From Chloroflexota bacterium (lineage in GTDB: Bacteria; Chloroflexota; Dehalococcoidia; Lucifugimonadales; Australimonadaceae): DNA of 64,000 nt. Numbering within the stretch: position 1 is the stretch's first letter; each line of letters starts with the position of its first letter. The translations under genes and the position numbers were made by a program. The stretch lies in assembly GCA_022561985.1 (NCBI GenBank), contig JADFQE010000001.1, forward strand, positions 3,344 to 67,343. Reading direction: 5' to 3'. This document shows, one piece after another, positions 10,791 through 62,998 of this stretch. The notes under the pieces were generated by a model that saw only the letters and a program-made list of their open reading frames with translations, ran no database searches and was not told where the DNA came from.

Positions 10791-10814
10791 CAGGGCACAG
10801 CGCCGCACCCACTC
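10791..10814 (-). repeat. REP-like palindromic element, inverted orientation
   Basis: CAGGGCACAGCGCCGCACCCACTC starts 1 nt after the tRNA-Ala CCA end. It is the reverse complement of the GAGTGGGTSCAGGGCTGTGCCCTG family. Confidence 0.6.
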
Positions 10815-10949
10815 GGCAGGGCGCGGCCCATGGTATCGACGAACGCTCATGGGCGCTGGCCGGCCCGCTATGAACGACAGAGGTGCGCCCTTGTCAGCGA
10901 CGCTACCCCATGTGGGTCAAGGGCAGTGCCCTTGCGAGGTACCCGACGC

Positions 10950-11507
10950 ATGAGCCCACTCCCTGACTGGTACCGGGACTTCGTCGCGGCGGTCGTCGCC
11001 CACCTTCCGAGCGAGATCGACGAGGCGGCAGCCCGGCGGTGGATCAACGACCCCGGCGGCCTCGATGACGTGCTCGGCGCCCTGGCTGGCTCCGGCGGCG
11101 GGTCGCAGATAGCGGGCACCTTTGAGCACGATAAGACGAAGGACGGCTGGGTGCTCGTCGGGGACGTGACCGAGCCTTCGACCATCGCGGGCGACGTTAT
11201 CGAGATCACGCCGTTCAAGGCAGAGGGCGAAGAGGACCTCTTCGGGGACGAGGTGGTGGAGCGCGTGCTGGCGCTCGAGGGGGTGCTGGGACAGCGCCAC
11301 GCCGAGTTCCTGCTGGCCCATCCCGGCGAGATACCGGAGGAGTTCCAGCGGTACTCGCTGATCTTCCCCGGCACGATCTGGCGCAGCCCGGAGGGCAACC
11401 ACCAGGTGCCCTGCGCGAACTGGCGGCAGGGGGCTTGGGAGCTGACCTTCGGGATCGTCGAGGGCGGCTTCGACGCCGGCGACCGTCTGGTCCGGCTGCG
11501 CGCTTAG
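10950..11507 (+). CDS. hypothetical protein
   Basis: 185 aa from MSPLPDWYRDF, with an acidic, protein-like composition. No family recognised. The start was chosen at the first ATG after the junk-like N-terminal part of the track ORF. Confidence 0.5.
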   Translation: MSPLPDWYRDFVAAVVAHLPSEIDEAAARRWINDPGGLDDVLGALAGSGGGSQIAGTFEHDKTKDGWVLVGDVTEPSTIAGDVIEITPFKAEGEEDLFGDEVVERVLALEGVLGQRHAEFLLAHPGEIPEEFQRYSLIFPGTIWRSPEGNHQVPCANWRQGAWELTFGIVEGGFDAGDRLVRLRA

Positions 11508-11540
11508 GCGCCCAAGACTGCGCGCTAAGGCGCGCGGGCG

Positions 11541-12962
11541 CTAGAGCGGCGGGCGGCGCTCGTGCCAGTCGGTCCGCTGCTGGTAGGCGTACCCCACCCG
11601 GAACAGCGTGTTCTCGTCGAAGGGCCGCCCCGCGATCTGCATGCTGATGGGCAGCGCGCCTTCCGTGAAGCCGCAGGGCACCGCCATCGCCGGCACGCCC
11701 GCGAGGTTGAAGGGGCTGCGGTGCGAGCGCGACCCGAAGAACTGGCGCATCACCGCCTCCTTGCTGGTCAGCCCCGTCTCCGTCGCGATCTTGGGCGCCG
11801 CCTCCGGCTGCGTCGGCAGCACGAGCACGTCGAAGCGCCCGAGCGCCGCCATCACGTCGCGCCGCATCAGCGCGCGGAAGCGCGTCAGCTTCACGTAGGC
11901 CGCCGCCGGTATCAGGCTGGATGCCAGCAGCCGCCGTCGCGTCGCGAAGTCGTAGTCGGCCGGCCGCTCGCGGAGCCACCGGCGGTGGACGTGCGCCGCG
12001 TCCACGTCCGCCAGCACGTTGGCGATCAGCCCGCCGTGCGCGAAGAGCGGCAGCGTCGCGTCGGCGACCTTGGCGCCCGCCTCGCGGAGCACGCCCAGCG
12101 CCGCGTGCACGGCGGCCGCCACCTCGTCGCCCGCCGCGCCGTCGTCGATGGCCTCGCGCACCAGCCCCACGCGCAGCCCTTCTAGCCCCTGCTCCGGCGT
12201 CCAGTCGATGGGCTCGACAGGCCGTCGCGACGTGGACGGATCGCCGGGGTCGTGACCGGCGATGGCCCCGAAGACCAGCGCCGCGTCCTCCACCGTCTTG
12301 GCCATCGGGCCGACCGTGTCCATGGACCACGCCATCGGGAAGGCGCCACGGCGGCTCACGCGGCCCCACGTCGGACGCAGGCCGACGATGCCGCACCAGG
12401 CCGCCGGACTGCGGATGGACCCGGCGGTGTCGCCGCCGAGGGCCGCCGCGCAGAGCGACGCGGCGACCGCGACGCCCGAGCCGCTGGAGGACTGGCCGGC
12501 CTGGCGCTCCTCGTCCCAGGGGTTGTGGGGCACGCCGAAGGGGTGCTCGATGCTCCCGCCGAGGGCGTACTCGCTCATGTTGAGCTTGCCCAAGATCACC
12601 GCGCCCGCCTCGCGCAGCCGTGCGACCGCGCCCGCGTCCTCCAATGCCACGTAGTCGGCGATCCGCCCGCCGAGGGTGGTCCGCAAGCCCTTGACGTCGA
12701 GCTGATCCTTGACCGCGACCGGCAACCCGTGGAGCGGGCCGCGCGAGCTCCCGCGCGTCAGCTCGGCCTCGGCGGCGCGGGCGGCCCGGAGCGCGCCGTC
12801 GGGATCCAGCGTGATGTAGGCGTTGAGCCGCGCGAGCTCCCCGGCGCGCTTGAGGTACGCCTGCGTGAGCTCGACGGGCGAGAGCTCGCCGCGCGCGATC
12901 AGCGCCGACTGCGCGGTGGCCGAGGCGAGCGTGGGGTCGCTCGGGATATCACGGCTGGGCAT
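11541..12962 (-). CDS. amidase-signature (AS) family amidase
   Basis: GGSIEHPFGVPHNPWD...GQSSSGSGVAVAA...GGDTAGSIRSPAAWCG is the AS-family Ser-cisSer-Lys core. The start is taken at MPSRDIP (ATG 12962), adjacent to the stop of the upstream mini-ORF. Confidence 0.85.
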   Translation of the reverse strand: MPSRDIPSDPTLASATAQSALIARGELSPVELTQAYLKRAGELARLNAYITLDPDGALRAARAAEAELTRGSSRGPLHGLPVAVKDQLDVKGLRTTLGGRIADYVALEDAGAVARLREAGAVILGKLNMSEYALGGSIEHPFGVPHNPWDEERQAGQSSSGSGVAVAASLCAAALGGDTAGSIRSPAAWCGIVGLRPTWGRVSRRGAFPMAWSMDTVGPMAKTVEDAALVFGAIAGHDPGDPSTSRRPVEPIDWTPEQGLEGLRVGLVREAIDDGAAGDEVAAAVHAALGVLREAGAKVADATLPLFAHGGLIANVLADVDAAHVHRRWLRERPADYDFATRRRLLASSLIPAAAYVKLTRFRALMRRDVMAALGRFDVLVLPTQPEAAPKIATETGLTSKEAVMRQFFGSRSHRSPFNLAGVPAMAVPCGFTEGALPISMQIAGRPFDENTLFRVGYAYQQRTDWHERRPPL

Positions 12963-12963
12963 G

Positions 12964-13158
12964 CTACGGCTGCTCCTCGGCCGGCCAGGCCACCGGCAGC
13001 GGGTCGATCCGGTCCACGTCGGGGTGTTCGAGGGCCAAAACGGCCTCGTTGATGGCGTTGATCCGGTGCGTGACCTCGGCGAGGTCGTCATCGTCTTGGG
13101 GCGCGAGCCCGAGCGCCCGGAGCTGGGTGCGGACCTCTTCTGGGCTCAGATCGGCCAT
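12964..13158 (-). CDS. GatC/AtzG-like small subunit (64 aa)
   Basis: MADLSPEEVRTQLRALGLAPQDDDDLAEVTHRINAINEAVLALEHPDVDRIDPLP follows the GatC pattern (ls.eev..la.La.l.l...e...l...l..il..v..L...d...v.p). It lies directly upstream of an amidase. Confidence 0.55.
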   Translation of the reverse strand: MADLSPEEVRTQLRALGLAPQDDDDLAEVTHRINAINEAVLALEHPDVDRIDPLPVAWPAEEQP

Positions 13159-13280
13159 GCGCGCTCCTCTCCCTCAGGGATGGCAGCATCTTGGGGGCGG
13201 TGGCCCCCTCGGGCGGCAGCCATTCTAGCGCGCGGGCCGCTGCCCGTGCGTGCGCGCTCTGGTATGCTCGTAGCCTGGTT

Positions 13281-13369
13281 GGAGGGGTCGCATAGTGGCC
13301 TAGTGCACCCGCCTGCTAAGCGGGAGGGCCGGAAGGCTCACGCGGGTTCGAATCCCGCTCCCTCCGCCA
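13281..13369 (+). tRNA. tRNA-Ser (anticodon GCU), long variable arm, CCA encoded
   Basis: Acceptor GGAGGGG/TCCCTCC, anticodon arm CCCGC-CTGCTAA-GCGGG, long variable arm GGGCCGGAAGGCTCAC, T-arm GCGGG-TTCGAAT-CCCGC. Confidence 0.9.
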
Positions 13370-13395
13370 TCCCGGCACATCCCGCGAGGGGCTCG

Positions 13396-14685
13396 ATGAA
13401 CCGCTACCACGTCTGGACCGTCGGCTGTCAGATGAACAAGGCCGATTCCGAGCGGCTCGGCGCCGGTCTCGAGCAGCTCGGCCTCGTCTGGACGCCCAAG
13501 GCCAAGGACGCCGACGTCCTCATCCTCAATAGCTGCGTCGTCCGGCAGAACGCCGAGGACCGCGTCGTCGGCATGCTCACGAGCCTCAAGCCGTGGAAGG
13601 AGAGCAACCCCGGGGTGACCCTCGCGCTCATGGGCTGCATGGTGGGCCCGAAGAGCGACGAGCTGCGCGCCCGGTTCCCCTACGTCGACGTCTTCATGGC
13701 GCCCCAGCAGTTCGAGCCGCTGATCCGGCTCGTCGGCGACAAGGCCGGCATCGACCCGGACGGGTGCGTCGGGCCGCTCGTCCCCGGCCACCCGAACGTG
13801 ACGACCCACGTGCCCATCATCCACGGGTGCGACAAGTTCTGCACCTTCTGCATCATCCCCTACCGGCGCGGGCGTGAGGTCTCGCGGCCCCTCGATGAGC
13901 TCGTCGAGGAGTGCCACAAGCTCGTGGCCCGCGGCGTTCGCGAGGTGACGCTGCTCGGGCAGAACGTCGACTCCTACGGCCACGACCTGCCCGGCGCGCC
14001 GGACCTCGCCGACCTGCTGGAGGCCGTCCACGACGGCGTGCCGGAGCTCGTGCGCATCCGGTTCCTGACGTCGCACCCCAACGACATGAGCGAGCGCATC
14101 ATCGACGCGGTCGCCCGGCTCCCCCGCGCCATGGAGTGCATCAACCTGCCGTTCCAGGCGGGCAGCGACGAGGTGCTCTCGAGCATGCGCCGGGGGTACA
14201 CGAACGCGCAGTACCGCGAGCTCGTCGCTCGCGTCCGCGCCTCGGTCCCCGGCGTCGCCATGGTCACCGACCTCATCGTCGGCTTCCCCGGCGAGACTGA
14301 AACGCAGTTCGAGGACTCGCTCGCGATGGTCCAGGACCTCCGCTTCGACAAGGTGCACGCGGCCGCGTACTCGACGCGTCCCGGCACGATCGCCGCGCGC
14401 AAGCTCACCGACGACGTGGGGCACGAGGAGAAGCAGCGCCGCCTGCACGCCATCGAGGCCGTGCAGGAGAGCGTGCTCACGGAGATCAACGCGGGGTACC
14501 TCGGCTCCACGCAGGAGGTGCTGGTGGACGGCCGCTCGCGCGGACGCTGGCAGGGCCGGACGCGCACCGACAAGCTCGTCTTCTTCGACGACGAGCGCGA
14601 CCTGCTGGGGCGCCTGATGCAGGTGCGCATCACAAAGACGACCCCCTGGTCCCTCCAAGGCCATCTTGACGAAGCGCCCGCCTGA
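13396..14685 (+). CDS. miaB: tRNA-2-methylthio-N6-dimethylallyladenosine synthase (radical SAM methylthiotransferase)
   Basis: Starts YHVWTVGCQMNKADSERL. Radical-SAM cluster motif GCDKFCTFCIIPYRRG and a C-terminal TRAM-like region. It begins 26 nt after tRNA-Ser. Confidence 0.9.
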   Translation: MNRYHVWTVGCQMNKADSERLGAGLEQLGLVWTPKAKDADVLILNSCVVRQNAEDRVVGMLTSLKPWKESNPGVTLALMGCMVGPKSDELRARFPYVDVFMAPQQFEPLIRLVGDKAGIDPDGCVGPLVPGHPNVTTHVPIIHGCDKFCTFCIIPYRRGREVSRPLDELVEECHKLVARGVREVTLLGQNVDSYGHDLPGAPDLADLLEAVHDGVPELVRIRFLTSHPNDMSERIIDAVARLPRAMECINLPFQAGSDEVLSSMRRGYTNAQYRELVARVRASVPGVAMVTDLIVGFPGETETQFEDSLAMVQDLRFDKVHAAAYSTRPGTIAARKLTDDVGHEEKQRRLHAIEAVQESVLTEINAGYLGSTQEVLVDGRSRGRWQGRTRTDKLVFFDDERDLLGRLMQVRITKTTPWSLQGHLDEAPA

Positions 14686-14744
14686 ACCCGTCCCCTGGCG
14701 CCTGAACCTGGCACGGGCGCCCGCTCGGCGATAAACTGCAACGC

Positions 14745-15608
14745 ATGCTTCACCACTGGCACGGCACGATCCACTTGATCCAGCAGGCGCTCGCCGAAGA
14801 CGAGGCCGCCTACGACCCCACGAGCTCGCTGCTCCCGGACGACCTCACCTCCGAGGCGCTCATGATGCCCAAGGCCGACGGCGTGCTCGCGGGCGTCGAC
14901 GTGGCGCTCGCCGTCTTCCGCGAGGTCGACCCCGGCCTGGAGACCACCGTCATGGTCCCGGACGGGTCGCGGGTCGAGAAGGGCATGTACGTGGCCTCGA
15001 TCCGGGGCCGCATGGCCTCCATCCTGCGGGCCGAGCGCACGGCGCTCAACTTCGTCCAGCGCATGAGCGGCATCGCCACGGCCACCGCCGAGTTCGTGAA
15101 GGCCGTGGAGGGACTCCCGGTACAGATCATCGACACGCGCAAGACCGTGCCCGGCTTCCGGCTGCTCGACAAGTACGCGGTGCGGATGGGCGGGGGGCAC
15201 AACCACCGCATGAGCACGGGCGACGGCGTCCTCATCAAGGACAACCACATCGCCGCCATGGCCACGCGCGGCGAGTCCATGACGCAGCTCATCAAGCGCG
15301 CGCAGTCCCAGGTCCCGCACACGATCCGCATCGAGGTGGAGTGCGACACGCTGGAGCAGGTGCGCGAGGCCGTGGACGCGGGCGCCGACATCATCCTGTT
15401 CGACAACATGACCCCGGACCAGATGCGCGAGGGCGTCGATATCTGCCGGGGCCGCGCGATGACCGAGGCCTCCGGCGGCATCACCATCGACAACGTGCGC
15501 GAGGTCGCCGAGGCGGGCGTCGACCTGCTCTCCTCCGGCTCCATCACGCACTCGACCAAGGCGCTCGACATCAGCCTAGAGGTCAGGCCCGACCGGCCCT
15601 CTTCGTGA
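14745..15608 (+). CDS. nadC: nicotinate-nucleotide diphosphorylase (carboxylating)
   Basis: 287 aa. ALAEDEAAYDPTS, ERTALNFVQRMSGIAT, DTRKTVPG and LLDKYAVRMGGGHNHR are typical QPRTase blocks. Confidence 0.9.
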   Translation: MLHHWHGTIHLIQQALAEDEAAYDPTSSLLPDDLTSEALMMPKADGVLAGVDVALAVFREVDPGLETTVMVPDGSRVEKGMYVASIRGRMASILRAERTALNFVQRMSGIATATAEFVKAVEGLPVQIIDTRKTVPGFRLLDKYAVRMGGGHNHRMSTGDGVLIKDNHIAAMATRGESMTQLIKRAQSQVPHTIRIEVECDTLEQVREAVDAGADIILFDNMTPDQMREGVDICRGRAMTEASGGITIDNVREVAEAGVDLLSSGSITHSTKALDISLEVRPDRPSS

Positions 15609-16981: not shown

Positions 16982-17049
16982 CGCCCGCAGCGGTGAGGGT
17001 CGACGTATACTCGCCGCGTCCTCCTGCTCGCTCGCCAGAAGGAGCCAGC

Positions 17050-17265
17050 GTGACGCAGCACGACCCCGCCGAGCTCAGCCCCGAGACCTTCGCGGCGCTG
17101 GCCGCGCAGCTCGGCGTGCGCCTGAGCGCCGAGCGCCTCGATGAGCTCTACCCGGACGTCCGTGCGCTGCTCGCGCGGATCGCGCCGCTCTGGGACATCG
17201 ATGTGTCCGCGGTCGCGCCCGATGAGATCGGGGAGACCGCGCGGGACGTTGGCGGTGCGGCGTGA
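17050..17265 (+). CDS. GatC/AtzG-like small subunit (71 aa)
   Basis: GTG 17050 has GAAGGAG upstream. LSPETFAALAAQLGVRLSAERLDELYPDVRALLARIAPLWDIDVSAV follows the GatC-like pattern. Its stop overlaps the amidase start (GTGA). Confidence 0.5.
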   Translation: MTQHDPAELSPETFAALAAQLGVRLSAERLDELYPDVRALLARIAPLWDIDVSAVAPDEIGETARDVGGAA

Positions 17266-18680: not shown

Positions 18681-18793
18681 CGTTCGTGGGCGGCCTTGGC
18701 GTGCTGCAGGTGGACCTCGGGCCCATGGGGCGCTGGCCGGAACGCCATGGCCGCGCGGTGAGCATCCGGGCAGCCGTGCTGCAGCGCGGCAGC

Positions 18794-18817
18794 GAGTGGG
18801 TGCAGGGCTGTGCCCTG
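18794..18817 (+). repeat. REP-like palindromic element, forward orientation
   Basis: GAGTGGGTGCAGGGCTGTGCCCTG lies between the convergent amidase and aldolase genes. Confidence 0.65.
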
Positions 18818-18829
18818 CCTGTGCCCGGC

Positions 18830-19573: not shown

Positions 19574-19624
19574 GGGGACCTCCAGGTCTCTCACGATGTG
19601 TAAGACACGCATCGCCGGGGACGG

Positions 19625-20344: not shown

Positions 20345-20410
20345 GGTGCGGATTATAGCGGCCCGGCCGGCGCGCGACCGCGGATGCCCAGAGCCGCGAT
20401 CTGCGCGAGC

Positions 20411-20434
20411 GAGTGGGTCCAGGGCTGTGCCCTG
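20411..20434 (+). repeat. REP-like palindromic element, forward orientation
   Basis: GAGTGGGTCCAGGGCTGTGCCCTG sits in the 103-bp divergent moaDE/rarA spacer. Confidence 0.65.
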
Positions 20435-20441
20435 GTAGACT
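20433..20441 (+). promoter_or_regulatory. extended -10 promoter TGGTAGACT driving a leaderless rarA mRNA
   Basis: The -10 box ends at 20441 and the A of ATG 20448 is exactly 7 nt downstream. There is no SD. The TG comes from the 3' end of the REP hairpin. Confidence 0.5.
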
Positions 20442-20447
20442 CCCGGC

Positions 20448-21806
20448 ATGGCAGCGAAGCGCGGCGGTGAGACCCTGTTCGAGCACCTCGGCAAGCAGCG
20501 CGAGGCCGGGTCAGCGCCGCTCGCGGCCCGGATGCGGCCGCGCACCCTCGAGGAGTTCACGGGGCAGGAGCACATCCTGGGCCCCGGCCACATCCTCGAG
20601 CGCGCCATCGCCACCAAGCAGGTGCCGTCCATGATCCTGTGGGGCCCGCCCGGGTCCGGCAAGACGACGCTTGCCCGGCTCGTCGCCGGCCTGACCGGCG
20701 CGCACTTCATCGGGCTCTCGGCCGTCACCTCCGGCGTTGCGGACCTGCGCAAGGGCGTCGAGGAGGCCCGCGAGCTGCGGGCGATGGAGGACCGGCCCAC
20801 GATCCTGTTCATCGACGAGGTCCACCGCTTCAACAAGGCGCAGCAGGACGCCATCCTGCCCCACGTCGAGAACGGCACGGTCACGTTCATCGGCGCCACC
20901 ACGGAGAACCCCTCGTTCGAGGTCATCGCGGCGCTGCTCTCCCGCACGCGCGTCCTCGTGCTCAAGCCGCTCACCGACGAGCACATGGCCGTCATCATCG
21001 ACCGCGCGCTCACCGACACCGAGCGCGGCCTGGGGAACGAGCACCTGGAGCTTGAGCCGGAGGCCCGCGCGTTCCTGCTGACGGTCGCCTCCGGCGACGC
21101 CCGGGTCGCGCTCAACGCCCTGGAGCTGGCCGCGCAGATCGCGCAGCCGGACGCCGGCGGCGTGCGGCGCGTGGGGCGGGCGTTCATGGAAGATGTCCTC
21201 CAGCGGCGTGCGCCGATGTACGACAAGGCTGGCGACTCCCACTACGACACCGTCTCGGCCTTCATCAAGTCGGTGCGCGCCTCCGACCCGGACGCCGCCG
21301 TGTACTGGCTCGCGCGGATGATCGAGGCCGGCGAGGACCCGATGTTCATCGCGCGCCGCATCGTGATCTCGGCTGCGGAGGACGTCGGCATGGCCGACCC
21401 GAACGCGCTCGGGATCGCCGTCGCCGCGCAGCAGGCCGTCCACTTCGTCGGGATGCCGGAGGGCGCGATCCCGCTCGCCGAGGCGGTCGTCTACCTGGCC
21501 ACGGCGCCGAAGAGCAACGCCTCCTACGTGGCTCTCAACCGTGCGCTGGAGGAGGTGCGCAGCGGTCAGCAGTACCCGGTGCCGCTGCACCTGCGCAACG
21601 CCGTCACCGGCCTCATGCGCTCGTTGGGCTACGGGAAGGACTACAAGTACGCCCACGACCATGAGGGGAGCTTCGCCGGGCAGCGGAACCTGCCGCCGGA
21701 GATCGAGGACAAGCGCTTCTACGAGCCGGGGGACCAGGGCTACGAGCTGACGGTGCGGGAGCGGATCGAGACGTGGTGGCGGAATACGAAGCAGAAAGAC
21801 GAATAA
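20448..21806 (+). CDS. rarA: replication-associated recombination protein A (AAA+ ATPase)
   Basis: 452 aa. LWGPPGSGKTTLARL, ILFIDEVHRFNKAQQD and the MgsA C-terminal block YDTVSAFIKSVRASDPDAAVYWLARM. Confidence 0.9.
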   Translation: MAAKRGGETLFEHLGKQREAGSAPLAARMRPRTLEEFTGQEHILGPGHILERAIATKQVPSMILWGPPGSGKTTLARLVAGLTGAHFIGLSAVTSGVADLRKGVEEARELRAMEDRPTILFIDEVHRFNKAQQDAILPHVENGTVTFIGATTENPSFEVIAALLSRTRVLVLKPLTDEHMAVIIDRALTDTERGLGNEHLELEPEARAFLLTVASGDARVALNALELAAQIAQPDAGGVRRVGRAFMEDVLQRRAPMYDKAGDSHYDTVSAFIKSVRASDPDAAVYWLARMIEAGEDPMFIARRIVISAAEDVGMADPNALGIAVAAQQAVHFVGMPEGAIPLAEAVVYLATAPKSNASYVALNRALEEVRSGQQYPVPLHLRNAVTGLMRSLGYGKDYKYAHDHEGSFAGQRNLPPEIEDKRFYEPGDQGYELTVRERIETWWRNTKQKDE

Positions 21807-23305: not shown

Positions 23306-23412
23306 GGTGTCGGAGCGCAGGTCGATGGCGATGGCGTGCTCCTTGTGGGTGGGCTACGAGGCGATTCTAGCGCAGCGTGCGCGGCGCCGTAGGGCTGTGC
23401 GCTGTGCCCTGC

Positions 23413-23418
23413 TAGACT
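23413..23418 (+). promoter_or_regulatory. -10 box TAGACT (TGCTAGACT extended form) for a near-leaderless lspA
   Basis: ATG 23428 is 10 nt downstream of the hexamer end. A degenerate REP (AGGGCTGTGCGCTGTGCCCTG) lies immediately upstream. Confidence 0.4.
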
Positions 23419-23427
23419 GGCGAGGCC

Positions 23428-23949
23428 ATGATTGCGTTCCAGCAACGCCACCGTTTCGTCGTGCTCGTCGCTGCGGCGCTGTTCGCCCTCGACCAGGGCA
23501 CCAAGGCCGTCGTCGTGCAGAACCTTGCCCTGGGACATTCGTGGCCGGGCGAGGGGTTCTTCCGCATCACGCACATCGCCAATTCGGGCAGCGCCTTCGG
23601 GCTGCTCGACGGGCAGAACGTCCTGCTCACCATCGCGTCGGCGGTGGGGATCGGCGTGCTCGTGCTGTTCTACCGCTCCCACGCGAACCCCGGCCTGCTG
23701 GTGCGCCTGAGCCTTGGCCTCATGCTTGCGGGGGCCTTCGGGAACCTCACCGATCGGCTGGTGCGCGGCTACGTGACCGACTTCGTCGACATCGGGCCCT
23801 GGTACATCTTCAACGTCGCCGATGCCTCCATCGTCACGGGCGTCATCATCCTGGCGGTGAGCATCGTTCGCCCGGAGCCGGCCCCGGCATCCGCAGAGCC
23901 GGAGCCGGCCGCCGCCGTCTCGCCAGCCGATGACCAGCCTGCAAGCTGA
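23428..23949 (+). CDS. lspA: lipoprotein signal peptidase II
   Basis: 173 aa, 4 TM segments. Motifs ITHIANSGSAFGLL, GNLTDRL and VTDFVDI. Confidence 0.85.
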   Translation: MIAFQQRHRFVVLVAAALFALDQGTKAVVVQNLALGHSWPGEGFFRITHIANSGSAFGLLDGQNVLLTIASAVGIGVLVLFYRSHANPGLLVRLSLGLMLAGAFGNLTDRLVRGYVTDFVDIGPWYIFNVADASIVTGVIILAVSIVRPEPAPASAEPEPAAAVSPADDQPAS

Positions 23950-31085: not shown

Positions 31086-31162
31086 GGCGCATTCGTCTAG
31101 CGGCCCAGGACATCGCCCTCTCAAGGCGAAGATCACGGGTTCAAATCCCGTATGCGCCACCA
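31086..31162 (+). tRNA. tRNA-Glu (anticodon CUC), CCA encoded
   Basis: Acceptor GGCGCAT/ATGCGCC, D-arm GTCT-AGCGGCCCA-GGAC, anticodon arm TCGCC-CTCTCAA-GGCGA, T-arm ACGGG-TTCAAAT-CCCGT. TATACT box about 30 nt upstream. Confidence 0.9.
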
Positions 31163-31163
31163 C

Positions 31164-31187
31164 CAGGGCACAGCCCTGGACCCACTC
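31164..31187 (-). repeat. REP-like palindromic element, inverted orientation (first of a tandem pair)
   Basis: CAGGGCACAGCCCTGGACCCACTC starts 1 nt after the tRNA-Glu CCA end. Confidence 0.65.
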
Positions 31188-31195
31188 GCTCGCGG

Positions 31196-31219
31196 CAGGG
31201 CGTCGCCCTGCACCTACTC
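31196..31219 (-). repeat. REP-like palindromic element, inverted orientation (second of a tandem pair)
   Basis: CAGGGCGTCGCCCTGCACCTACTC lies 8 nt after the first copy. Confidence 0.55.
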
Positions 31220-51736: not shown

Positions 51737-51769
51737 GTTGCGTTCTTGGGCGTTGAGCCGGTGTCCGGC

Positions 51770-52216: not shown

Positions 52217-52243
52217 GACGCAGCACCTCCTGCCCATCTAGTC

Positions 52244-53530: not shown

Positions 53531-53564
53531 AGGACGCTGGGCCAGCCTAGTGAGATCGCGAGGG

Positions 53565-55218: not shown

Positions 55219-55223
55219 CGCCA

Positions 55224-56003: not shown

Positions 56004-56163
56004 GACGATGTGGAGCGCGATGGGACGGCCTCGCGAGAGAGAGTAGGTGCCCGGCGCCCGGCGGGGCGAGCCGAGGCACGAGCAGATGCTAGCACGGCGG
56101 GGCTGTGCGCTGGCAGCGGGCCGGTAGGATGACAGCGCTCGTCGTGCTCCGTCGGCGCTACCG

Positions 56164-56188
56164 GATGTGGGTGCAGGGCTGTGCCCTG
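56164..56188 (+). repeat. REP-like palindromic element, forward orientation
   Basis: GATGTGGGTGCAGGGCTGTGCCCTG lies 8 nt upstream of TAGAAT (56197-56202). Confidence 0.6.
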
Positions 56189-56233
56189 CGCCCTGCTAGA
56201 ATCCGGACGAATCTGTGGTGTTTGGGGCCCTTC

Positions 56234-58828
56234 TTGCTGCCCATCAGTCTGACCCTTCGTAATTTCCTCTCCTACCGTGACGCCGCGCCCACGCTGCGCC
56301 TCGAAGACGTGCACCTCGTGTGCCTCTGCGGGCCGAACGGCCACGGCAAGTCGGCGCTGCTCGATGCCATCACCTGGGTGCTGTGGGGCAACGCGCGCGG
56401 GCTTCGCGGGCGGCATGGGCCGCTGCTGCACCACGGCCAGGACGAGATGTTCGTCGAGCTCGAATTCGACGTCCGCGACGAGCGTTACCGTGTCACCCGG
56501 CGCTACTCCCAGGCCCGGCGCTCCCCCCAGAGCTCGCTGGAGCTTGCCGTGCGCTCGGGCGACGACTACCAGCCGATCACGGGCGACACCATCGACCAGA
56601 CCCAGGCCCACATCATCCGCATCATCAACATGGACTACGACACCTTCGTGAACAGCGCGTTCCTGGTCCAGGGCCGCGCCGATCAGTTCACCATGTCCAC
56701 GCCGGCCGCGCGCAAGGAGGTCCTGTCGCGGGTGCTCGGCCTCGGGCTCTACGACCGCCTGGAGGAGCGCGCGAAGCTCCGCTCGCGGGAGCTCCAAGCC
56801 GTGCTGTCCTCGACCGCCGGCACCATGGACGTCCTCCGGGAGCGCGCGGCGCAGGCTGAGGGCCTCCGCGAGGAGCTTGCCGAGGCCGGCCGTGAGCTCG
56901 CGGCGGCGGCCGAAGCGGCCGCGTCTGCCGCCGAGCGCCTGAGCCTCCTGCGTGCCCGCGTCGAGCAGCTTGAGCGCTGGCGGGAGGAGGCAACGGGACT
57001 GGACGAGCAGGCCCGTCGCGTCGCGGCCCGGCAGCGTGAGGCCGCGGCGGACGCCGAGACCATCGAGCGGCGCGTCGGCGAGTGGCGCTCGGCGCTCTCC
57101 GACGCGGCCGGGATCGAGGCGGGCGTCGCGGCGCTCGAGCGGGCGCGCGAGCAGTACCGGGCGGTGAGCACGGCCGCGCAGCAGGTGGCCACGCTCCAGC
57201 GGGAGCTCGCGCCGCTGGACGAGGCGGTCATCACGGCGCGGGCGGGGTTCGAAAGCGACGCCGCCGCCCAGAACCACCACATCTCCCACGAGCTTGCGCC
57301 GCGTGCCGACGCGCTCCCGGCGGTCGAGCAGCGCCGCACCGAGGTCGCGAGCGAGACCGAGGCGCTGGCCGCGTCCTCGGCCGACGCGGAGAAGGCGGAG
57401 GAGGAGCACCGGCGCTTGAGCCTCGAAGCACGGCAGCTTGAGCAGGCCAACGCGCTGCTGGCGGAGCAGGGCAAGGAGACGAAGGCCAAGCTGGACCTGC
57501 TCGATCACGGCCACGAGGAAGGGGTGCCGTGCCCGCTCTGCGGGACCGCGCTGGGCGAGGCGTCGCTGGAGCGTATCCAGACGGCCTACCGCGAGGAGAT
57601 CGAGGAGCAGCGCACCCGCTTCGGCGTGCAGCAGACCAGGGTGAAGGTCCTCGACAAGCAGGCTGAGGACCTCGCCGTTCTTGCCGCGAAGGCCAGGCAG
57701 GCGCTCGATGCGAGCCGTCGTGAGCTCGATGTGGAGCGCGTGGCGCTCGATCTGCGCCTCGATGAGTCTCGGCGGGCCGCCGCGCAGATCGAGGGTGCGC
57801 GCCGCGTCCTGGCCGAGGCCGAGGCCGCTCTGGCGAGCGGGGCGTACGCCGCCGGGGAGCAGGCCGCCGCGAAGGCGCTGCGCGAGCGCATCGCCGCGCT
57901 CGCCTACGACGCCCACGCGTTCGAGGCCGCCGAGGCCCAGGTGACGGAGCTGACGCCGTGGGAGACGCGCGCCCAAGCGCTGGTGCAGGCCAGGACCCGT
58001 CTGGACGAGGATGCGGTGGCGCTCGATGGCGCGAAGCGGCGCGTTGCCGAGGCCGACGAGGAGCTCGCCCGCGTGGGGGCGCAGCAGCAGGCGATCGCGG
58101 CGGACCTCAAGGGGCTGCCGGGCGCGCGGGAGGAGCGCGACGTGGCGCAGACCGTGGCGAGCGCCGCCGAGCCCCGGCGGGACGAGGCGCGTGCGGCCCA
58201 GGCCGCGCTCGCGTACCGGCTGGATGAGGCGGAGGCCGCTGGGACGGAGCTCACGAAGCAGGAAACGGCGCACCGGGACCTCGTCCAGGAGGCGGGCGTC
58301 TACAGCGAGCTGGCGCTGGCGTTCGGGAAGGGCGGCGTGCAGGCGCTGCTGATCGAGGCGGCGATCCCACGGCTTGAGGACGAGGCGAACGAGCTGCTGA
58401 AGCGCATGACGAATGGGGAGATGACGCTCAAGATCGAGACGCAGCGCGCGCGGCGCACGGGCCCCGGCGCCGATGGGTCGGACGCGGTCGAGACGCTGGA
58501 CATCCAGATCGCGGACGGGCTCGGCACGCGGGCGTATGAGATGTTCAGCGGTGGCGAGCGTTTCCGCATCGACTTCGCGATCCGCATCGCACTCAGCAAG
58601 CTGCTGGCGTGGCGCGCCGGCGCCCCGCTGCCCACGCTGTTCATCGACGAGGGGTTCGGGACGCAGGACGCGGAGGGCCGTGACCGCATCCTGGACGTGA
58701 TCAGGGCGATCCAGGACCGCTTCGAGCGCATCTTGGTCATCACGCACATGGAGGAGATGAAGGACGCGTTCCCGCTGCGCATCGAGGTATCGCGCACCGC
58801 GGAGGGCTCGACCTTCACGATGTCGTAA
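56234..58828 (+). CDS. sbcC: SbcC/Rad50-family SMC-like ATPase with CxxC zinc hook
   Basis: TTG 56234 gives (M)LPISLTLRNFLSY. Walker A GPNGHGKSAL, long Ala/Glu/Arg coiled coil, central hook VPCPLCG, signature FSGGERF, Walker B LFIDEGFG, H-loop VITH. Confidence 0.85.
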   Translation: MLPISLTLRNFLSYRDAAPTLRLEDVHLVCLCGPNGHGKSALLDAITWVLWGNARGLRGRHGPLLHHGQDEMFVELEFDVRDERYRVTRRYSQARRSPQSSLELAVRSGDDYQPITGDTIDQTQAHIIRIINMDYDTFVNSAFLVQGRADQFTMSTPAARKEVLSRVLGLGLYDRLEERAKLRSRELQAVLSSTAGTMDVLRERAAQAEGLREELAEAGRELAAAAEAAASAAERLSLLRARVEQLERWREEATGLDEQARRVAARQREAAADAETIERRVGEWRSALSDAAGIEAGVAALERAREQYRAVSTAAQQVATLQRELAPLDEAVITARAGFESDAAAQNHHISHELAPRADALPAVEQRRTEVASETEALAASSADAEKAEEEHRRLSLEARQLEQANALLAEQGKETKAKLDLLDHGHEEGVPCPLCGTALGEASLERIQTAYREEIEEQRTRFGVQQTRVKVLDKQAEDLAVLAAKARQALDASRRELDVERVALDLRLDESRRAAAQIEGARRVLAEAEAALASGAYAAGEQAAAKALRERIAALAYDAHAFEAAEAQVTELTPWETRAQALVQARTRLDEDAVALDGAKRRVAEADEELARVGAQQQAIAADLKGLPGAREERDVAQTVASAAEPRRDEARAAQAALAYRLDEAEAAGTELTKQETAHRDLVQEAGVYSELALAFGKGGVQALLIEAAIPRLEDEANELLKRMTNGEMTLKIETQRARRTGPGADGSDAVETLDIQIADGLGTRAYEMFSGGERFRIDFAIRIALSKLLAWRAGAPLPTLFIDEGFGTQDAEGRDRILDVIRAIQDRFERILVITHMEEMKDAFPLRIEVSRTAEGSTFTMS

Positions 58829-58843
58829 GGGGAGGAGTTTCGC

Positions 58844-59518
58844 ATGACGACCCATCAGCAGCTCACCGGCTCGACCGACGACGAATTCCTGCAGCGGATG
58901 ATCGACACCACGGCTGGCCGGTTCACGGACGCGTTCTGGGCGCTGTTCGACGCCGAGGTGCGCCCACGGCTGCCCGAGGCGCCCGCCGTCGTCGACTTCG
59001 GCTGCGGGCCGGGTCTGTTCCTCCAAGCCGTGAGCCGGCGGATCCCCGCCGCGACGCTGAGCGGCTTCGACCTGACGCCCGCCATGATCGAGCACGCGCG
59101 CGGCCTCGAATTCGCGGGTGCGCCGGCGTCGTTCGAGGTCGCCGACCTCACGGCGGACCGCATCCCGCTGGCCGATGCATCGGTGCACCTCGGGGCGATG
59201 ACGGCCGTGCTGCACGTCTTCGACGACCCGTTCGCGTTCCTGGGGGAGGTGCGGCGTGCGCTGGCGCCGGGCGGCATCTTCCTGCTCTACGACTGGGTCC
59301 GGACCCCGCTGCGGGACTACCTCACGGACCGCGTCCCGCGGGAGGCCGGGGATGCGGCGGGCGCGCGTCTGCGGGCGATGCGCCTCTTCCCGAGCCACAA
59401 CAAGTACACGGTCGAGGACTGGCGCTGGCTGTTGGGCGAGTGTGGCTTCACCGTTGTCGCGGACGCCGCGCCCCGTCCCAACTTCCACGCGTTCGTGACC
59501 ACGGCCGAGGCGAACTAG
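58844..59518 (+). CDS. class I SAM-dependent methyltransferase
   Basis: VVDFGCGPG motif I and GGIFLLYDW. GGGGAGGAG SD upstream, 15 nt after the sbcC stop. Confidence 0.8.
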   Translation: MTTHQQLTGSTDDEFLQRMIDTTAGRFTDAFWALFDAEVRPRLPEAPAVVDFGCGPGLFLQAVSRRIPAATLSGFDLTPAMIEHARGLEFAGAPASFEVADLTADRIPLADASVHLGAMTAVLHVFDDPFAFLGEVRRALAPGGIFLLYDWVRTPLRDYLTDRVPREAGDAAGARLRAMRLFPSHNKYTVEDWRWLLGECGFTVVADAAPRPNFHAFVTTAEAN

Positions 59519-59569
59519 CACGGGTGTTCGACAAGGCTCGATGCGAACGGGTGTTTGCCGGGCGGTGGC

Positions 59570-62044
59570 CTACTTCACCACCACGCTGACCAGGTAGCGG
59601 CCCGGCACGAAGACGACCTTGGTGACCTCGTGGCCGTCGGTGTAGGCGCGCACGCGCTCGCTCCCGAGCGCCTGCTCCCTGGCATCGGCCTCGCTGATGC
59701 CGGCCGGCACGGCGATGCGGTCGCGCACCTTGCCGTTGACCTGCACCACGAGCGTCGCCTCCTCGATGGCGGCGAGCGCGTCGTCCCACTCCGGCAGCGG
59801 CTGCGCGTGGATGCTGTAGGGGTTGCCGGTGCGCTCCCACAGCTCCTCGGTGACGTGTGGGGCCATCGGCGCGAGGAGCAGGAGCAGGCTGCGGATCGTC
59901 CCGGCCCAGACGGGCCGCGAGACCGTGCGGGCCTCCAGCGCCGGCCCCATCTCGTTGGTGAGCTCCATCATCGCCGAGAGCGCCGTGTTGTACTTGAAGC
60001 GCTCGATGTCGGTGATGACGCGCCGGATCGTCTGGTGCATGCGGCGGGTCATGTCGCGGTCGGCGGGGCCGTCGTCAGCCGGCAGGTCGTCCGTGGGACT
60101 CGTGCAGAGGTCCCAAACGCGGTTCATCCAGCGGGCGAGCCCGTTGATCCCCGCGTCGCTCCAGTCGCCGCCGCCCTCCCAGGGCCCCATGAACATGAGG
60201 TAGAGCCGGACGACGTCGGCGCCGAGCTCGCTCACGTAGACGTCGGGCGAGACCACGTTGCCGCGGCTCTTGCTCATCTTCATGTGGTCCGAGAGCACCG
60301 TGCCCTGGTTGAAGAGGCGCAAGAAGGGCTCGCCGTGGCCGACGAGGCCCAGGTCGCGGATCACCCTGGTGAAGAAGCGGGCGTAGAGCAGGTGCATCAC
60401 CGCGTGCTCGGCGCCGCCCGTGTACTGGTCGACGGGGCCCCACAGCTTCGCCTTCTCCGCGTCGAAGGGGGCGTCGCCTTCGTCCACGCTTACGTAGCGT
60501 AAGAAGTACCACGACGAGTCCACGAACGTGTCCATCGTGTCGGTCTCGCGGGTCGCCGCGCCGCCGCACTGGGGGCACGTCGTGTTGAGGAAGCCCGCAT
60601 GCTGCTTCAGCGGCGACTCGCCCGTCGGCTTGAACTCCGCGTCCTCCGGCAGGAGGACGGGGAGCTGGTCCTCGGGCACCGGCTGCATGCCGCAGTCGTC
60701 GCAGTAGAGGATCGGGATCGGCGTGCCCCAGTAGCGCTGGCGCGAGATCAGCCAGTCGCGCATGCGGTAGGTGACCTTCCGCTCGCCCCACCCCTGCTCC
60801 ACGATGTGGTCGGCGATGGCCTCGTACCCCTCGGCGTTCCCCATGCCGTCGAAGCGCCCCGAGCTCACCTGCGAGCCCGTGCGTCCCAGGTACGCCTCGG
60901 GCAGCGGCTCGCCGTCCCACTCCGGCGGCGCGACGACCACGCGGATCTCGAGCCCGTAGCGCTGCGCGAACTCGAAGTCGCGGGCGTCGTGGGCCGGCAC
61001 GCCCATGACCGCGCCCGTGCCGTAGGTCAGCAGCACGTAGTCCGCCGTCCAGATGGGCACGCGCTCCCCGCTCAGGCGGTTGATGGCATACGCGCCGGTG
61101 AACACACCCGTCTTCTCGCGCTCGGTGGACAGCCGGTCGATCTCGGACGCCTCGCGTGCCTGCTGCACGTACGCCTCGACCTCGGCCCGCCGCTCGCCGG
61201 TCGTGATGCGCGCGACCAGCGGGTGCTCGGGCGCCAGCACGAGGAACGTCACGCCGAACACGGTGTCGATGCGCGTGGTGAACGTGGCAATCTCGCGCTC
61301 GTCGACCCCGAGGTCCGAGATGTCGAACGATATCTCGACGCCCTCGCTGCGCCCGATCCAGTTCGTCTGCATCGTCTTGATGCGCTCGGGCCAGTCGAGA
61401 ACGCCGGAGAAGTCCAGGAGCTCGTCGGCGTAGGCCGTGATCTTGAAGAACCACTGCTCCATCTCGCGCCGGATGACGGTGTCGCCGGTGCGCTCGCAGC
61501 GGCCGTCGATCACCTGCTCGTTGGCGAGCACGGTCTGGCAGGTGGGGCACCAGTTGACGGGCGCGGCGGCCCGGTACGCGAGCCCCTTCTCGTACATCTT
61601 CAGGAAGAACCACTGGTTCCACCGGTAGTAGGAGGGGAGGCAGGTGACGATCTCGCGGTCCCAGTCGTACACGCAGCCCATGGAGCGGAGCTGGCCGCGC
61701 ATGCGCTCCATGTTGTCCATGGTCCATGCGTAGGGGTGGATGCCGCGCTTGATGGCGGCGTTCTCGGCGGGCAGGCCGAAGGCGTCGAAGCCGATGGGGT
61801 GGAGCACGTTGTAGCCGCGCATCCGCATGAAGCGCGCGTGGGCGTCGGAGGGCGCCATGGCGTACCAGTGGCCGATGTGCAGGTCGCCGGAGGGGTACGG
61901 ATACATGGTCAGCGCGTACCACTTCGGGCGCGGGTCGTCGTCGTCCACGTGGTAGATGCGGTCCTCGTCCCAGCGCCGCTGCCATTTGCGGTCGATGGCG
62001 GCTGGGTCGTAGCGGAGGCGGGAGGGTCTGGACGAGGTGGCCAT
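59570..62044 (-). CDS. leuS: leucine--tRNA ligase
   Basis: 824 aa from MATSSRPS. HIGH motif PYPSGDLHIGH, KMSKS motif, CP1 editing domain and Zn-like CPTC/CPQCG motifs. Confidence 0.95.
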   Translation of the reverse strand: MATSSRPSRLRYDPAAIDRKWQRRWDEDRIYHVDDDDPRPKWYALTMYPYPSGDLHIGHWYAMAPSDAHARFMRMRGYNVLHPIGFDAFGLPAENAAIKRGIHPYAWTMDNMERMRGQLRSMGCVYDWDREIVTCLPSYYRWNQWFFLKMYEKGLAYRAAAPVNWCPTCQTVLANEQVIDGRCERTGDTVIRREMEQWFFKITAYADELLDFSGVLDWPERIKTMQTNWIGRSEGVEISFDISDLGVDEREIATFTTRIDTVFGVTFLVLAPEHPLVARITTGERRAEVEAYVQQAREASEIDRLSTEREKTGVFTGAYAINRLSGERVPIWTADYVLLTYGTGAVMGVPAHDARDFEFAQRYGLEIRVVVAPPEWDGEPLPEAYLGRTGSQVSSGRFDGMGNAEGYEAIADHIVEQGWGERKVTYRMRDWLISRQRYWGTPIPILYCDDCGMQPVPEDQLPVLLPEDAEFKPTGESPLKQHAGFLNTTCPQCGGAATRETDTMDTFVDSSWYFLRYVSVDEGDAPFDAEKAKLWGPVDQYTGGAEHAVMHLLYARFFTRVIRDLGLVGHGEPFLRLFNQGTVLSDHMKMSKSRGNVVSPDVYVSELGADVVRLYLMFMGPWEGGGDWSDAGINGLARWMNRVWDLCTSPTDDLPADDGPADRDMTRRMHQTIRRVITDIERFKYNTALSAMMELTNEMGPALEARTVSRPVWAGTIRSLLLLLAPMAPHVTEELWERTGNPYSIHAQPLPEWDDALAAIEEATLVVQVNGKVRDRIAVPAGISEADAREQALGSERVRAYTDGHEVTKVVFVPGRYLVSVVVK

Positions 62045-62086
62045 GCGTGCTCCGGGGCCGTGGGCTGGAACCGCCAGTTTACCAGG

Positions 62087-62108
62087 CAGGGCACGCCCTG
62101 CACCCACT
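62087..62108 (-). repeat. REP-like palindromic element; forward relative to leuS transcription
   Basis: The plus strand reads CAGGGCACGCCCTGCACCCACT. On the minus strand it is followed 5 nt later by TGGTAAACT (extended -10; rc of 62076-84), then SD GGAG and the leuS ATG. Confidence 0.6.
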
Positions 62109-62197
62109 TGCTCGCGCCGGCCGCTGATGCCTACAACCGCCGTTGGGCGCTCGCCGGAACGCGCGGGTATCCCGTTTCGTGCCTCCGGATGTGCTGA

Positions 62198-62869
62198 CTA
62201 CCTCTCGGCCCTCGGCGCCCGCTCGAGCTCCTTCTCGAACGCGTCTGGCTGCCCGTGCTGACGGGTGTACCAAACGCCCTCGGTGAAGTACTGGCTCGCG
62301 ATCCCCTCGCGCTTGAGCTCCCGGAGCTTGACCGCCGAGTCGAGGGCCGGGCGGAGGTCGGGCTCGCTGGTCCAGTTCGCCTTGAAATGGACGTGGCCGG
62401 TGTGGTCGATGATCCAGCTCATGTTGGAGCACCCCGCCCACGTCCGGTGGACCGCGCCGTCCACGTCGTCGATCAGGATGATCCGGGGCGTCCCGTGCCG
62501 CTCCTTCATGATCCGCGCGTGGTCAAACTTCTGCTCGATCGAGCGGATGGCGGGGAACTCCGGATGCTTGTCCGGGTGCGCCTCTCTCGTGTAGACGAAA
62601 AGGAAGTGGGCCTCGTTCTCGTAGTCCCGGGCGAGCTGGTCCATGAGCGGGAACTCCCGCTGGCAGGGCGGTCAGGTGATGGAACCGAACTCGATGAGCA
62701 CCGGTTTGCCACGGAGGTCCGAGAGGGTGACCTCGCCGCCGTCCACCCGTGGGAGCGTGAAGTCCGGCGCGGCCTCGCCCGCACGAAAGATGTTCCTGAA
62801 GTCCCAATGCGGCTCCTTCAGGTACGGCGACGCGTCGTAGTTGTAGTCGTGACCGTGGAAGAGAGTCAT
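62198..62869 (-). CDS. deiodinase-like thioredoxin-fold protein with in-frame UGA (candidate selenocysteine at 62674-62672)
   Basis: Two same-frame ORFs are joined by a single TGA. The junction FGSIT-U-PPC...FLFVYTREAHP parallels the iodothyronine deiodinase FGS(C/A)T-U-PPF...YI(E/D)EAHP. AAGGAGG lies 5 nt before ATG 62869. Confidence 0.7.
62646..62661 (-). promoter_or_regulatory. bSECIS-like hairpin AGCGGG-AGUU-CCCGCU
   Basis: The stem starts 11 nt after the UGA. The apical loop begins 17 nt after the UGA and has G at loop position 2. Confidence 0.5.
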
Positions 62870-62973
62870 GCCGCCTCCTTCATTCGGGCGACGCCCGCGG
62901 GTCCGGATGATAGCACCGGCAAGCGCTCCTCAGAATGACAGGAACGGGCGGGCGCCGTCGGCCGCCGGCCGCG

Positions 62974-62998
62974 GAGTGGGTCAAGGGCTTTGCCCTTG
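62974..62998 (+). repeat. REP-like palindromic element (variant GAGTGGGTCAAGGGCTTTGCCCTTG)
   Basis: It overlaps the last codons and stop of the HIT gene on the opposite strand. Confidence 0.5.

Follow-up and report, generated by a model that had tools for sequence, protein, structure and literature searches.

A family of short GC-rich palindromes recurs in a 64,000-nucleotide (nt) stretch of a Chloroflexota genome (hereafter the window; assembly GCA_022561985.1, contig JADFQE010000001.1, positions 3,344 to 67,343 of the forward strand), and its copies, which are spread over the whole assembly, end directly at stop codons, at the encoded CCA of tRNA genes and at promoter boxes. Judged from the sequence and its comparison with relatives, these palindromes probably form a non-coding family of the repetitive extragenic palindromic (REP) type, organized like REPINs (REP doublets forming hairpins), which is likely to be mobile and most likely owes its position at boundaries to a junction preference together with selection. 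A preliminary description of the window had proposed three possibilities, namely a mobile palindrome of the type moved by REP-associated tyrosine transposases (RAYTs), a hairpin for tRNA 3' processing or termination, and a protein-binding site at the -35 position. The first of these is the best supported, by a GTGG head, a GC-rich hairpin, the copy number, the extragenic placement, inward-facing dimers and the differences between species.

The window is part of contig C49 of an assembly (G000) of 2.39 Mb in 153 contigs, with 69% G+C and a completeness of 88.7%. Genes were called with a codon-usage model trained on G000 itself (2302 genes, 87% of the sequence coding), and the predicted stop positions were afterwards compared with orthologues. 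In the window, tRNAs were called by ARAGORN and Rfam, and gene identities were assigned by Pfam. The repeat pattern GAGTGGGTNCAGGGCNNNGCCCTG was searched with up to three mismatches, significance being assessed on shuffled sequence; a profile was built from the 179 pattern matches and applied at E<0.01, a position matrix was compiled over 179 copies, and the strict hairpin search was confined to perfect 7-bp stems. Comparisons involved two other species of the same genus, G001 (the sister species used for orthologues) and G002, and copy numbers were compared across 30 relatives.

In the window, the pattern is matched 7 times, compared with a mean of 0.02 in shuffled sequences, which never gave 7. 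The profile search raises this number to 9 by adding 62083-62123 (-) and 10896-10937 (+). The shared repeat that had been noted at first reading is borne out at the stated coordinates, the copy at 10896-10937 (+) having been overlooked and the decayed one at 23391-23410 being present as well; the four tRNA positions (ARAGORN and Rfam) and the identities of rarA/MgsA, lspA, the SbcC-like ATPase and leuS (Pfam) were also verified. The family is not restricted to the window: the genome holds 179 pattern matches, 60 of them exact, 233 profile matches and 213 perfect hairpins. The 233 profile copies comprise 176 that are intergenic, 34 that partly overlap a gene end and 23 inside genes, i.e., about 90% are extragenic or touch just a gene end in a genome that is 87% coding. 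Roughly 80 copies lie at gene 3' ends, 19-23 within genes and 5 at tRNA ends; convergent spacers are preferred, and next to co-directional genes the opposite orientation predominates (69 vs 42). In two places, C88:200-500 and C134:1900-2300, a stretch of approximately 91-96 nt with one copy is repeated 3-4 times in a tandem array.

Each hairpin consists of a GC-rich stem of 7 bp, one pair more than in the 6-bp CAGGGC/GCCCTG stem initially described, and a 3-nt loop, mainly TGT. The stem occurs as GCAGGGC/GCCCTGC, CCAGGGC/GCCCTGG, CAAGGGC/GCCCTTG or GAAGGGC/GCCCTTC, all with Watson-Crick compensation, and its two outer pairs covary perfectly (CA/TG in 93 copies, GC/GC in 62, CC/GG in 41 and GA/TC in 5). 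On one side stands the head (G)TGGGT, in which the GT[AG]G tag takes its GTGG version and is set off from the stem by GT; the head is found on one side of 201 of the 213 perfect hairpins and on both sides of none, and its G-T-G-G is conserved at 171-176 of 179 positions of the matrix. Upstream of the head, five stretches recur, namely GCGCTGGC-GAGT (43 copies), GCGCGAGC-GAGT (33), GCGGCAGC-GAGT (18), GCTACCnn-(A/T)TGT (40) and GCCCCTnn-TGT (44). Among mismatched stems, G-T on the head strand outnumbers A-C by 17 to 5, a wobble bias which fits folding of the strand that carries the GTGGGT hairpin (the RAYT substrate strand) rather than folding in the mRNA of the abutted gene. The position matrix holds no T-run on either side of the hairpin, the flanks being ACCCAC on one side and variable or GC-rich on the other, and the hairpin, although GC-rich, is therefore not an intrinsic (Rho-independent) terminator. 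In the window, Rfam reports only the four tRNAs above threshold and, for a 145-nt unit containing two hairpins, one chance-level match (CRISPR-DR29, E 0.93).

These hairpins are organized in pairs. Neighboring copies at most 400 nt apart face each other with their heads in 37 cases and stand in tandem in 29, while tails never point inwards (0 pairs). The 29 strict heads-inward pairs have 76-176 nt between their hairpins, with modes at 87 and 111 nt. A full unit, to which two thirds of the copies belong, measures about 110-210 bp and carries one hairpin at each extreme end. Its inner part is conserved and asymmetric, end A reading ...GCGCTGGC-GAGTGGGT and end B ...GCTACCCC-ATGTGGGT, and the center, GGGCGCTGGCCGG..CGCT..TGAACGAC, is common to all 29 strict pairs; this central motif also accompanies 134 of 201 copies (two thirds) on the head side. 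A typical 145-nt unit folds into a 23-bp terminal stem formed by its two ends plus an inner hairpin, at an energy of -91 kcal/mol (z -7.0) for RNA and -51 kcal/mol (z -5.9) for DNA. The 24-nt palindrome of the preliminary description is therefore the terminal module of a unit resembling REPINs or bacterial interspersed mosaic elements (BIMEs), and the foot of the hairpin is the outer end of the element. A cut-and-paste MITE (miniature inverted-repeat transposable element) of the DDE type was considered, the ends being inverted, and was rejected as the flanks of the 29 complete units have no common TA or target duplication.

The outer end is placed with single-base precision. Where tails face a gene 3' end (99 copies), the stop codon lies at distance 0 from the stem in 37 cases and overlaps it by one base (-1) in 8; once partial tail duplicates are collapsed, these numbers become 41 and 9. 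In the distance-0 class, the element is excluded as the source of the stop, since 20 of 22 proteins terminate at the residue where their G001 orthologue does, and roughly half of the corresponding sites in G001 are free of copies. A further 25 open reading frames (ORFs) run into the element and end either at the TAG of the loop (11) or at the TGA of CCCTTGACCC (14), which adds QGHSP before the stop. At least 25 predicted genes thus have C-terminal tails encoded by the element, which read QGHSP or QGQSP where they stem from CAAGGGC and ..RA where they stem from the loop TAG. Relative to the G001 orthologues, the element has taken the place of the final 0-19 native codons in these classes, to which the window gene 62981-63409 (-) belongs.

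At tRNA genes, the hairpin follows the CCA without a gap in 4 of 47 ARAGORN tRNA/tmRNA genes (Ala-GGC, Glu-CTC, Glu-TTC and Leu-GAG) and in one tRNA-Met-like 3' fragment, the head always being directed away from the tRNA. The placement of inverted copies behind the CCA, and the tandem pair at tRNA-Glu, had been recognized correctly, while the distance of 1 nt given for them becomes 0 when measured from the 7-bp stem. Occupancy amounts to 5/47 tRNA 3' ends vs 50/2302 protein-gene ends, an approximately 5-fold difference (Fisher p = 0.004). The placements at tRNA ends and -10 boxes, the two recurrent settings pointed out earlier, are two cases of a wider rule, according to which the hairpin end lies flush with whatever functional boundary follows; stop codons are the most frequent of these. 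The fragment (C33:~11510-11580) consists of the anticodon arm, the T arm and CCA of a tRNA-Met-like gene, with no matching 5' acceptor strand; it could be the remnant of an integration at a tRNA gene. At C75:3797-4143, ARAGORN predicts a tmRNA with the unusual tag peptide AERPGCCGPDAARDRLRAAAGG before the stop, probably a wrong call of the resume codon.

The third boundary is the promoter. A gene start lies 12-150 nt downstream of 55 tails, and in 27 of these a TAnnnT box follows the tail within 0-7 nt, compared with 5.2% in the control (p = 2e-20); the box is at offset 0 in 10 of the 55 vs 0.66%, and offsets 1 and 2 are empty. Like the placement at tRNA ends, the reported recurrence of copies before -10 boxes holds genome-wide; the distance, given as 1-8 nt, is 0 nt at rarA when measured from the 7-bp stem. 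TGn, the hallmark of an extended -10, precedes 20 of the 27 abutted boxes vs 30% for leaderless-type promoters generally. That the tail itself feeds this TG, as had been suggested, is correct for the 6 of 10 offset-0 copies which end in CCCTG[GC] and incorrect for the 4 which end in CCCTTG. The head GTGGGT comes to lie 17 bp upstream of the abutted box, and some tails adjoin TTGACA-type -35 boxes instead. Genome-wide, TAnnnT peaks 6-9 nt before starts (about 90-107 genes vs a background of 3-5 per position), the commonest start-proximal boxes being TAGAAT and TAGACT (e.g., 20436-20450 and 23413-23430), a peak which suggests that many mRNAs are leaderless. The same contexts are found in two other genera of the bacterial family, with TGCTAGAAT after the tail three times and CTA stops at distance 0.

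The individual copies of the window are listed below. One of them stands in the 103-nt divergent spacer 20345-20447 between a MoaD/MoaE-like gene and rarA, which is filled end to end: ATTATA (TATAAT read in reverse) lies 8 nt from where the left gene starts and is followed by the half element and then by TAGACT, 6 nt from the rarA start.

Table 1. Copies of the repeat in the window and their immediate surroundings (window coordinates).
Position (strand)	Feature	Composition	Context
10790..10934	Complete 145-nt two-hairpin unit	111-nt spacing class	
10790-10806	Left hairpin of this unit	Decayed GCAGGGCACAGCGCCGC, then ACCCACTC	Directly after CCA of tRNA-Ala(GGC) (10714-10789); copy after CCA also present in G001 and G002
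10918-10934	Right end of this unit	ATGTGGGT + hairpin CAAGGGCAGTGCCCTTG	15 nt upstream of ATG 10950
18794..18818 (+)	Copy	Head GAGTGGGT, hairpin GCAGGGCTGTGCCCTGC (18802-18818), then partial tail duplicate CTGTGCCC	Between amidase gene (end 18680) and convergent class II aldolase gene (stop 18830)
20360..20435 (+)	Half unit	Central motif AGCGGCCCGGCCGGCGCGC, GCGCGAGC-GAGTGGGT, hairpin CCAGGGCTGTGCCCTGG (20419-20435)	TAGACT (20436-20441) flush with hairpin, 6 nt, rarA ATG 20448 (leaderless-promoter layout); tail yields TGG-TAGACT, extended -10; at the same place in G001 and G002, decayed REP-like stretch plus TGCTAAGAT
23391..23418 (+)	Decayed copy, read directly from the sequence	AGGGCTGTGCGCTGTGCCCTGC adjoining TAGACT (23413-23418)	9 nt before lspA ATG 23428
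31163..31219 (-)	Tandem inverted pair	Hairpins 31163-31179 (CCAGGGC type) and 31195-31211 (GCAGGGC type); + strand heads ACCCACTC, ACCTACTC	Directly after CCA of tRNA-Glu(CTC) (31086-31162)
56165..56202 (+)	Copy	Head ATGTGGGT, hairpin GCAGGGCTGTGCCCTGC (56173-56189), 7-nt tail duplicate GCCCTGC, TAGAAT (56197-56202)	SbcC-like gene downstream
62076..62123 (-)	Copy with shortened loop	AAGTGGGT-GCAGGGCGTGCCCTGC, then on the minus strand CTGG, TAAACT (62081-62076)	Upstream of leuS (start 62044); gives TGG-TAAACT
62974..62998 (+)	Copy	Head GAGTGGGT, hairpin CAAGGGCTTTGCCCTTG	Minus-strand ORF 62981-63409 runs into the copy and stops at its TGA (C-terminal tail ...QGQSP); last 3 residues extend past the G001 orthologue alignment, G001 stop directly after the aligned part

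Comparison with relatives points to turnover between species. Exact copies number 182 in G000 and 33 and 12 in its two congeners; outside the genus, 14 and 4 were counted in members of two genera, and each of the remaining genomes among the 30 relatives has 0-1. Of the copies that can be placed, about 28% have a counterpart at the orthologous G001 position and about 72% have none. In each of the three species of the genus, a copy stands at the tRNA-Ala junction and also at that of tRNA-Glu, where the subtypes differ, G001 and G002 having a CAAGGGC stem and another inner end. In one convergent spacer, the elements of G000 and G001 are oppositely oriented, each lying flush with a different stop. 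A tRNA-Ala gene in another genus has no hairpin, and the tRNA-Leu(GAG) of G001 is 100% identical and has no copy. At this tRNA-Leu(GAG) of G000 (C112:14315-14401), synteny with G001 ends exactly at the 3' end and the downstream DNA differs, as expected for an integrated island.

What places the ends so precisely can be approached through the bases they meet. As the first base beyond the stem, 47% of copies have T and 43% have C, compared with 17% and 33% in the intergenic background, and T[AG]G or TA at offset 0-1 is enriched approximately 6-fold. The abutted stops comprise 33 TAG, 8 TAA and 4 TGA, which departs from the genome usage of 55%, 11% and 34% (p = 0.002), TAG being the main stop codon of G000. 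A single target trinucleotide is excluded, as the bases before the hairpin (TAG, TAA, TGA, CCA, CTA, CAA) share only a purine end. The genome is also very compact. The median length of spacers free of REPs is 31 nt between convergent genes and 47 nt between tandem genes, and spacers holding a copy are about 100-125 nt longer; therefore, the element often represents nearly the whole spacer. Compaction as the sole cause was rejected, since the expected occupancy of exact boundaries is only a few percent and G000 has a second REP family whose tail does not abut boundaries in this way. Partial tail duplicates (e.g., GCCCTGC-GCCCTGC-TAGAAT) are common, as are remnants of 3-7 nt (CTGC, CTGG) before -10 boxes, and their sequences suggest repeated events at the same junction. 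Most likely, to judge from these patterns, two factors combine to give the boundary precision, namely that T, and TA in particular, is preferred at the junction and that selection acts on a very compact genome.

The enzyme that would mobilize such a family was sought in G000. One RAYT-like ORF was found (C84:8358-8957), with the motifs NHIHGIV and RGYYEH and a Pfam Y1_Tnp score of 24.4 bits; it came to light when motifs were searched and the matches examined with hmmscan, a genome-wide scan with Pfam Y1_Tnp having been too insensitive to give a match, and the closest relatives of its product are found in Chloroflexota metagenome-assembled genomes. In the interval C84:8276-8957, this ORF is located between two direct copies of the second REP family, GTAGGGGCGCACGGCGTGCGCCC (GTAG-GGGCGCAC repeats), a family with some 25-40 members genome-wide. 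Between its two catalytic motifs, the ORF itself contains one more copy of that family, inverted and encoding RAHGRAPLH, and this whole arrangement is kept in G001. In 7 of 23 copies of the second family, its own TAG head forms the stop of the upstream gene, as in GTAG REPs (PMC3733652). RAYT homologues were found in only 3 of 18 genera of the bacterial family. An autonomous element was sought among ORFs enclosed by inward-facing copies 200-4000 nt apart; by inspection of their translations, for which no Pfam scan was made, these ORFs look metabolic or housekeeping-like, none is repeated, and there is no candidate transposase among them.

Several observations weigh against a mobile REP-type family placed by junction preference and selection. 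In G000, no transposase gene flanked by copies of the GTGGGT hairpin was found, and the sole RAYT-like ORF carries a different REP family, the second one with GTAGGGGCGCAC..GTGCGCCC, as does its 75%-identical orthologue in G001. The GTGGGT hairpin is also absent from 80 of 80 RAYT loci of other organisms, and no RAYT was detected in the two relatives holding 14 and 4 copies. Between G000 and G001 or G002, no clean pair of a filled and an empty site was obtained, the spacers being too rearranged. The second REP family, whose nearest neighbor lies 8 nt from its tail, makes compaction alone insufficient, and a junction rule of T or TA is by itself too weak for the spike at distance 0; because intergenic T and TA far outnumber stops, selection or another factor must add to it. 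Finally, stop-abutting copies are shared with G001 more often than others (14/36 vs 10/53; p = 0.05), which also fits selective maintenance. As regards the enzyme, two sources could be responsible: the C84 RAYT may act in trans, given that the two genomes possessing it also have the most copies, or the gene may be missing from the assembly, since this is only 88.7% complete.

Known families offer close parallels. The preliminary description had not recognized the element as belonging to a described family; however, REPs tagged with GT[AG]G, including GTGG and Chloroflexi examples, have been catalogued (PMC3733652). This GTAG superfamily (SMAG of Stenotrophomonas; GTAG-1 to GTAG-24, Di Nocera et al. 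2013, PMC3733652) likewise combines a short GC-rich hairpin with a one-sided GT[AG]G tag, of which a GTGG version is known (GTAG-20), and comprises hundreds of mainly extragenic copies, sub-families with compensated stems, a predominance of head-to-head dimers, and copies that lie near, at or over ORF ends and stop codons; a possible role as promoter parts has been raised as well. In the family described here, by contrast, the GTGG tag is set off from the stem by GT, stops abut the foot of the hairpin (the tail) and not the tag, which could not provide TAG here, the two members of a dimer are separated by a long spacer (76-176 nt) whose sequence is conserved but not symmetric, and no RAYT flanked by the family was found. 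In REPINs (Bertels and Rainey 2011; Pseudomonas fluorescens), two inverted REPs likewise form one long single-strand hairpin, the doublet appears to be the replicating unit, and populations persist and differ between related genomes. Unlike in REPINs, the halves are complementary over only about 23 nt here, and the inner 80-110 nt are asymmetric with a hairpin of their own. In Escherichia coli, the REP/BIME system with TnpA-REP (PMC8266576, PMC3479197) similarly shows clusters of alternating orientation and many REPs within 15 nt of stops. Its Y1 enzyme binds tag and hairpin on one strand and cleaves beside the hairpin at C|T, using the tag as a guide, with GTGG shifting the site (PMC8266576); cleavage of this kind would leave no target duplication and define the ends to the base. 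Two traits set the present family apart from this system, namely a perfect stem with no bulge, whereas the E. coli enzyme needs one, and mixed junction dinucleotides (TG, CT, CG, TA) in place of a strict CT.

Taken together, the element shows every structural feature of GT[AG]G-tagged REPs and of REPINs/BIMEs, the exception being a cognate RAYT flanked by the family, the combination known as a REPtron. The Correia element of Neisseria, a small, non-coding MITE with inverted ends that lands beside genes and can contribute parts of promoters, is a further point of comparison; unlike it, the family lacks a TA target duplication in its 29 complete units and is terminated by hairpins with a REP-type tag. 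A full-text literature search, which cannot prove absence, found no description of REP ends flush with a tRNA CCA or of a tail that restores TGn.

Two of the rival explanations see in the palindrome a signal in its own right. If it were primarily an RNA signal for tRNA 3' processing or transcription termination, its position flush after the CCA of four tRNAs and one tRNA fragment, its constant orientation there, the preference for convergent spacers and the excess of copies opposite to co-directional genes would all be accommodated. Nevertheless, we regard this as very unlikely, given that neither orientation offers a T/U run (the next bases are ACCCAC or GC-rich), that 42 of 47 tRNAs do without the hairpin, as do the tRNA-Ala of another genus and the identical tRNA-Leu of G001, and that the same element stands in the other orientation upstream of promoters. 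In addition, bacterial tRNA 3' maturation involves exonucleolytic trimming, which a hairpin flush with the CCA should impede. An operator, i.e., the shared regulon site of a DNA-binding protein at the -35 position, would accord with the perfect palindrome that overlaps the -35 or spacer region of at least 27 promoters. Yet most copies lie away from promoters, at gene 3' ends, in genes or at tRNA ends, the adjacent genes are functionally unrelated (rarA, lspA, sbcC, leuS and assorted metabolic genes), and the compensatory stem changes keep the pairing and not the sequence, which fits a folded strand better than a duplex operator; this explanation appears the least credible of all.

More weight attaches to the idea of a co-opted boundary cassette, in which the hairpin after a stop codon or CCA caps the 3' end, while the opposite end provides TGn and, at 17 bp, a -35-like GTGGGT to the next, often leaderless promoter. 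Such a role would explain the single-base precision at stops, CCA and -10/-35 boxes, the retention of native stops, the excess of TGn at abutted boxes together with the vacancy of the offsets 1-2 that would break it, and the recurrence of the same contexts in two other genera. It would also fit the filling of the tRNA-Ala and tRNA-Glu junctions in three species, at tRNA-Glu by different subtypes, the slight excess of stop-abutting copies common to G001, and the second REP family, which speaks against compaction alone; moreover, E. coli REPs at most 15 nt from a stop affect expression, according to Liang et al. as cited in PMC12306157. On the other hand, a general signal would hardly be confined to about 2% of protein-gene ends and 5 of 47 tRNA ends, some 70% of copies have no orthologous counterpart in the sister species, and tRNA-Ala of another genus and the identical G001 tRNA-Leu(GAG) manage without a copy. 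Furthermore, 4 of the 10 offset-0 copies (CCCTTG) give no TGn, the 25 copies that overwrite last codons look like tolerated damage, and the wobble bias lies on the head strand and not on the mRNA strand of the abutted gene. We therefore hold co-option of this kind to be possible but unlikely. A combined version, in which insertion chemistry (guide-directed joining 5' of T/TA) sets the hairpin ends at boundaries and the copies are later co-opted as two-faced punctuation, seems to us rather improbable. If it were true, a selfish REPIN family would have become the standard gene spacer of a streamlined Chloroflexota lineage, with one end capping the mRNA or tRNA at its stop or CCA and the other giving TGn and the -35-like half of a leaderless promoter.

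Under the preferred reading, a REP/REPIN-type family with a junction preference and selection at boundaries, a Y1 (HUH) transposase of the RAYT/TnpA-REP type, working in trans, would copy the element or move it in the form of single-stranded DNA. Transposition of a single strand would leave the end exactly at the hairpin foot, with no target duplication, and the junctions used would preferably be T, especially (Y)TA. Purifying selection in a genome whose REP-free spacers measure about 30-50 nt would then leave as survivors those copies that are wedged between a stop codon or tRNA CCA and the next promoter box, and a copy in front of a -10 box may be tolerated because an extended -10 regains its TGn from the tail CCCTG[GC].

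To our knowledge, work on REP and REPIN elements has been confined almost entirely to Proteobacteria. The family described here would add a well-resolved REP family from an uncultured Chloroflexota lineage with small genomes, whose ends can be read to the base. For annotation, it matters that at least 25 genes end inside a copy with element-encoded tails and that many starts beside copies appear to be leaderless. The family also offers a good natural data set on how REP-type elements choose their sites or survive there, and on whether such elements supply promoter or 3'-end functions.

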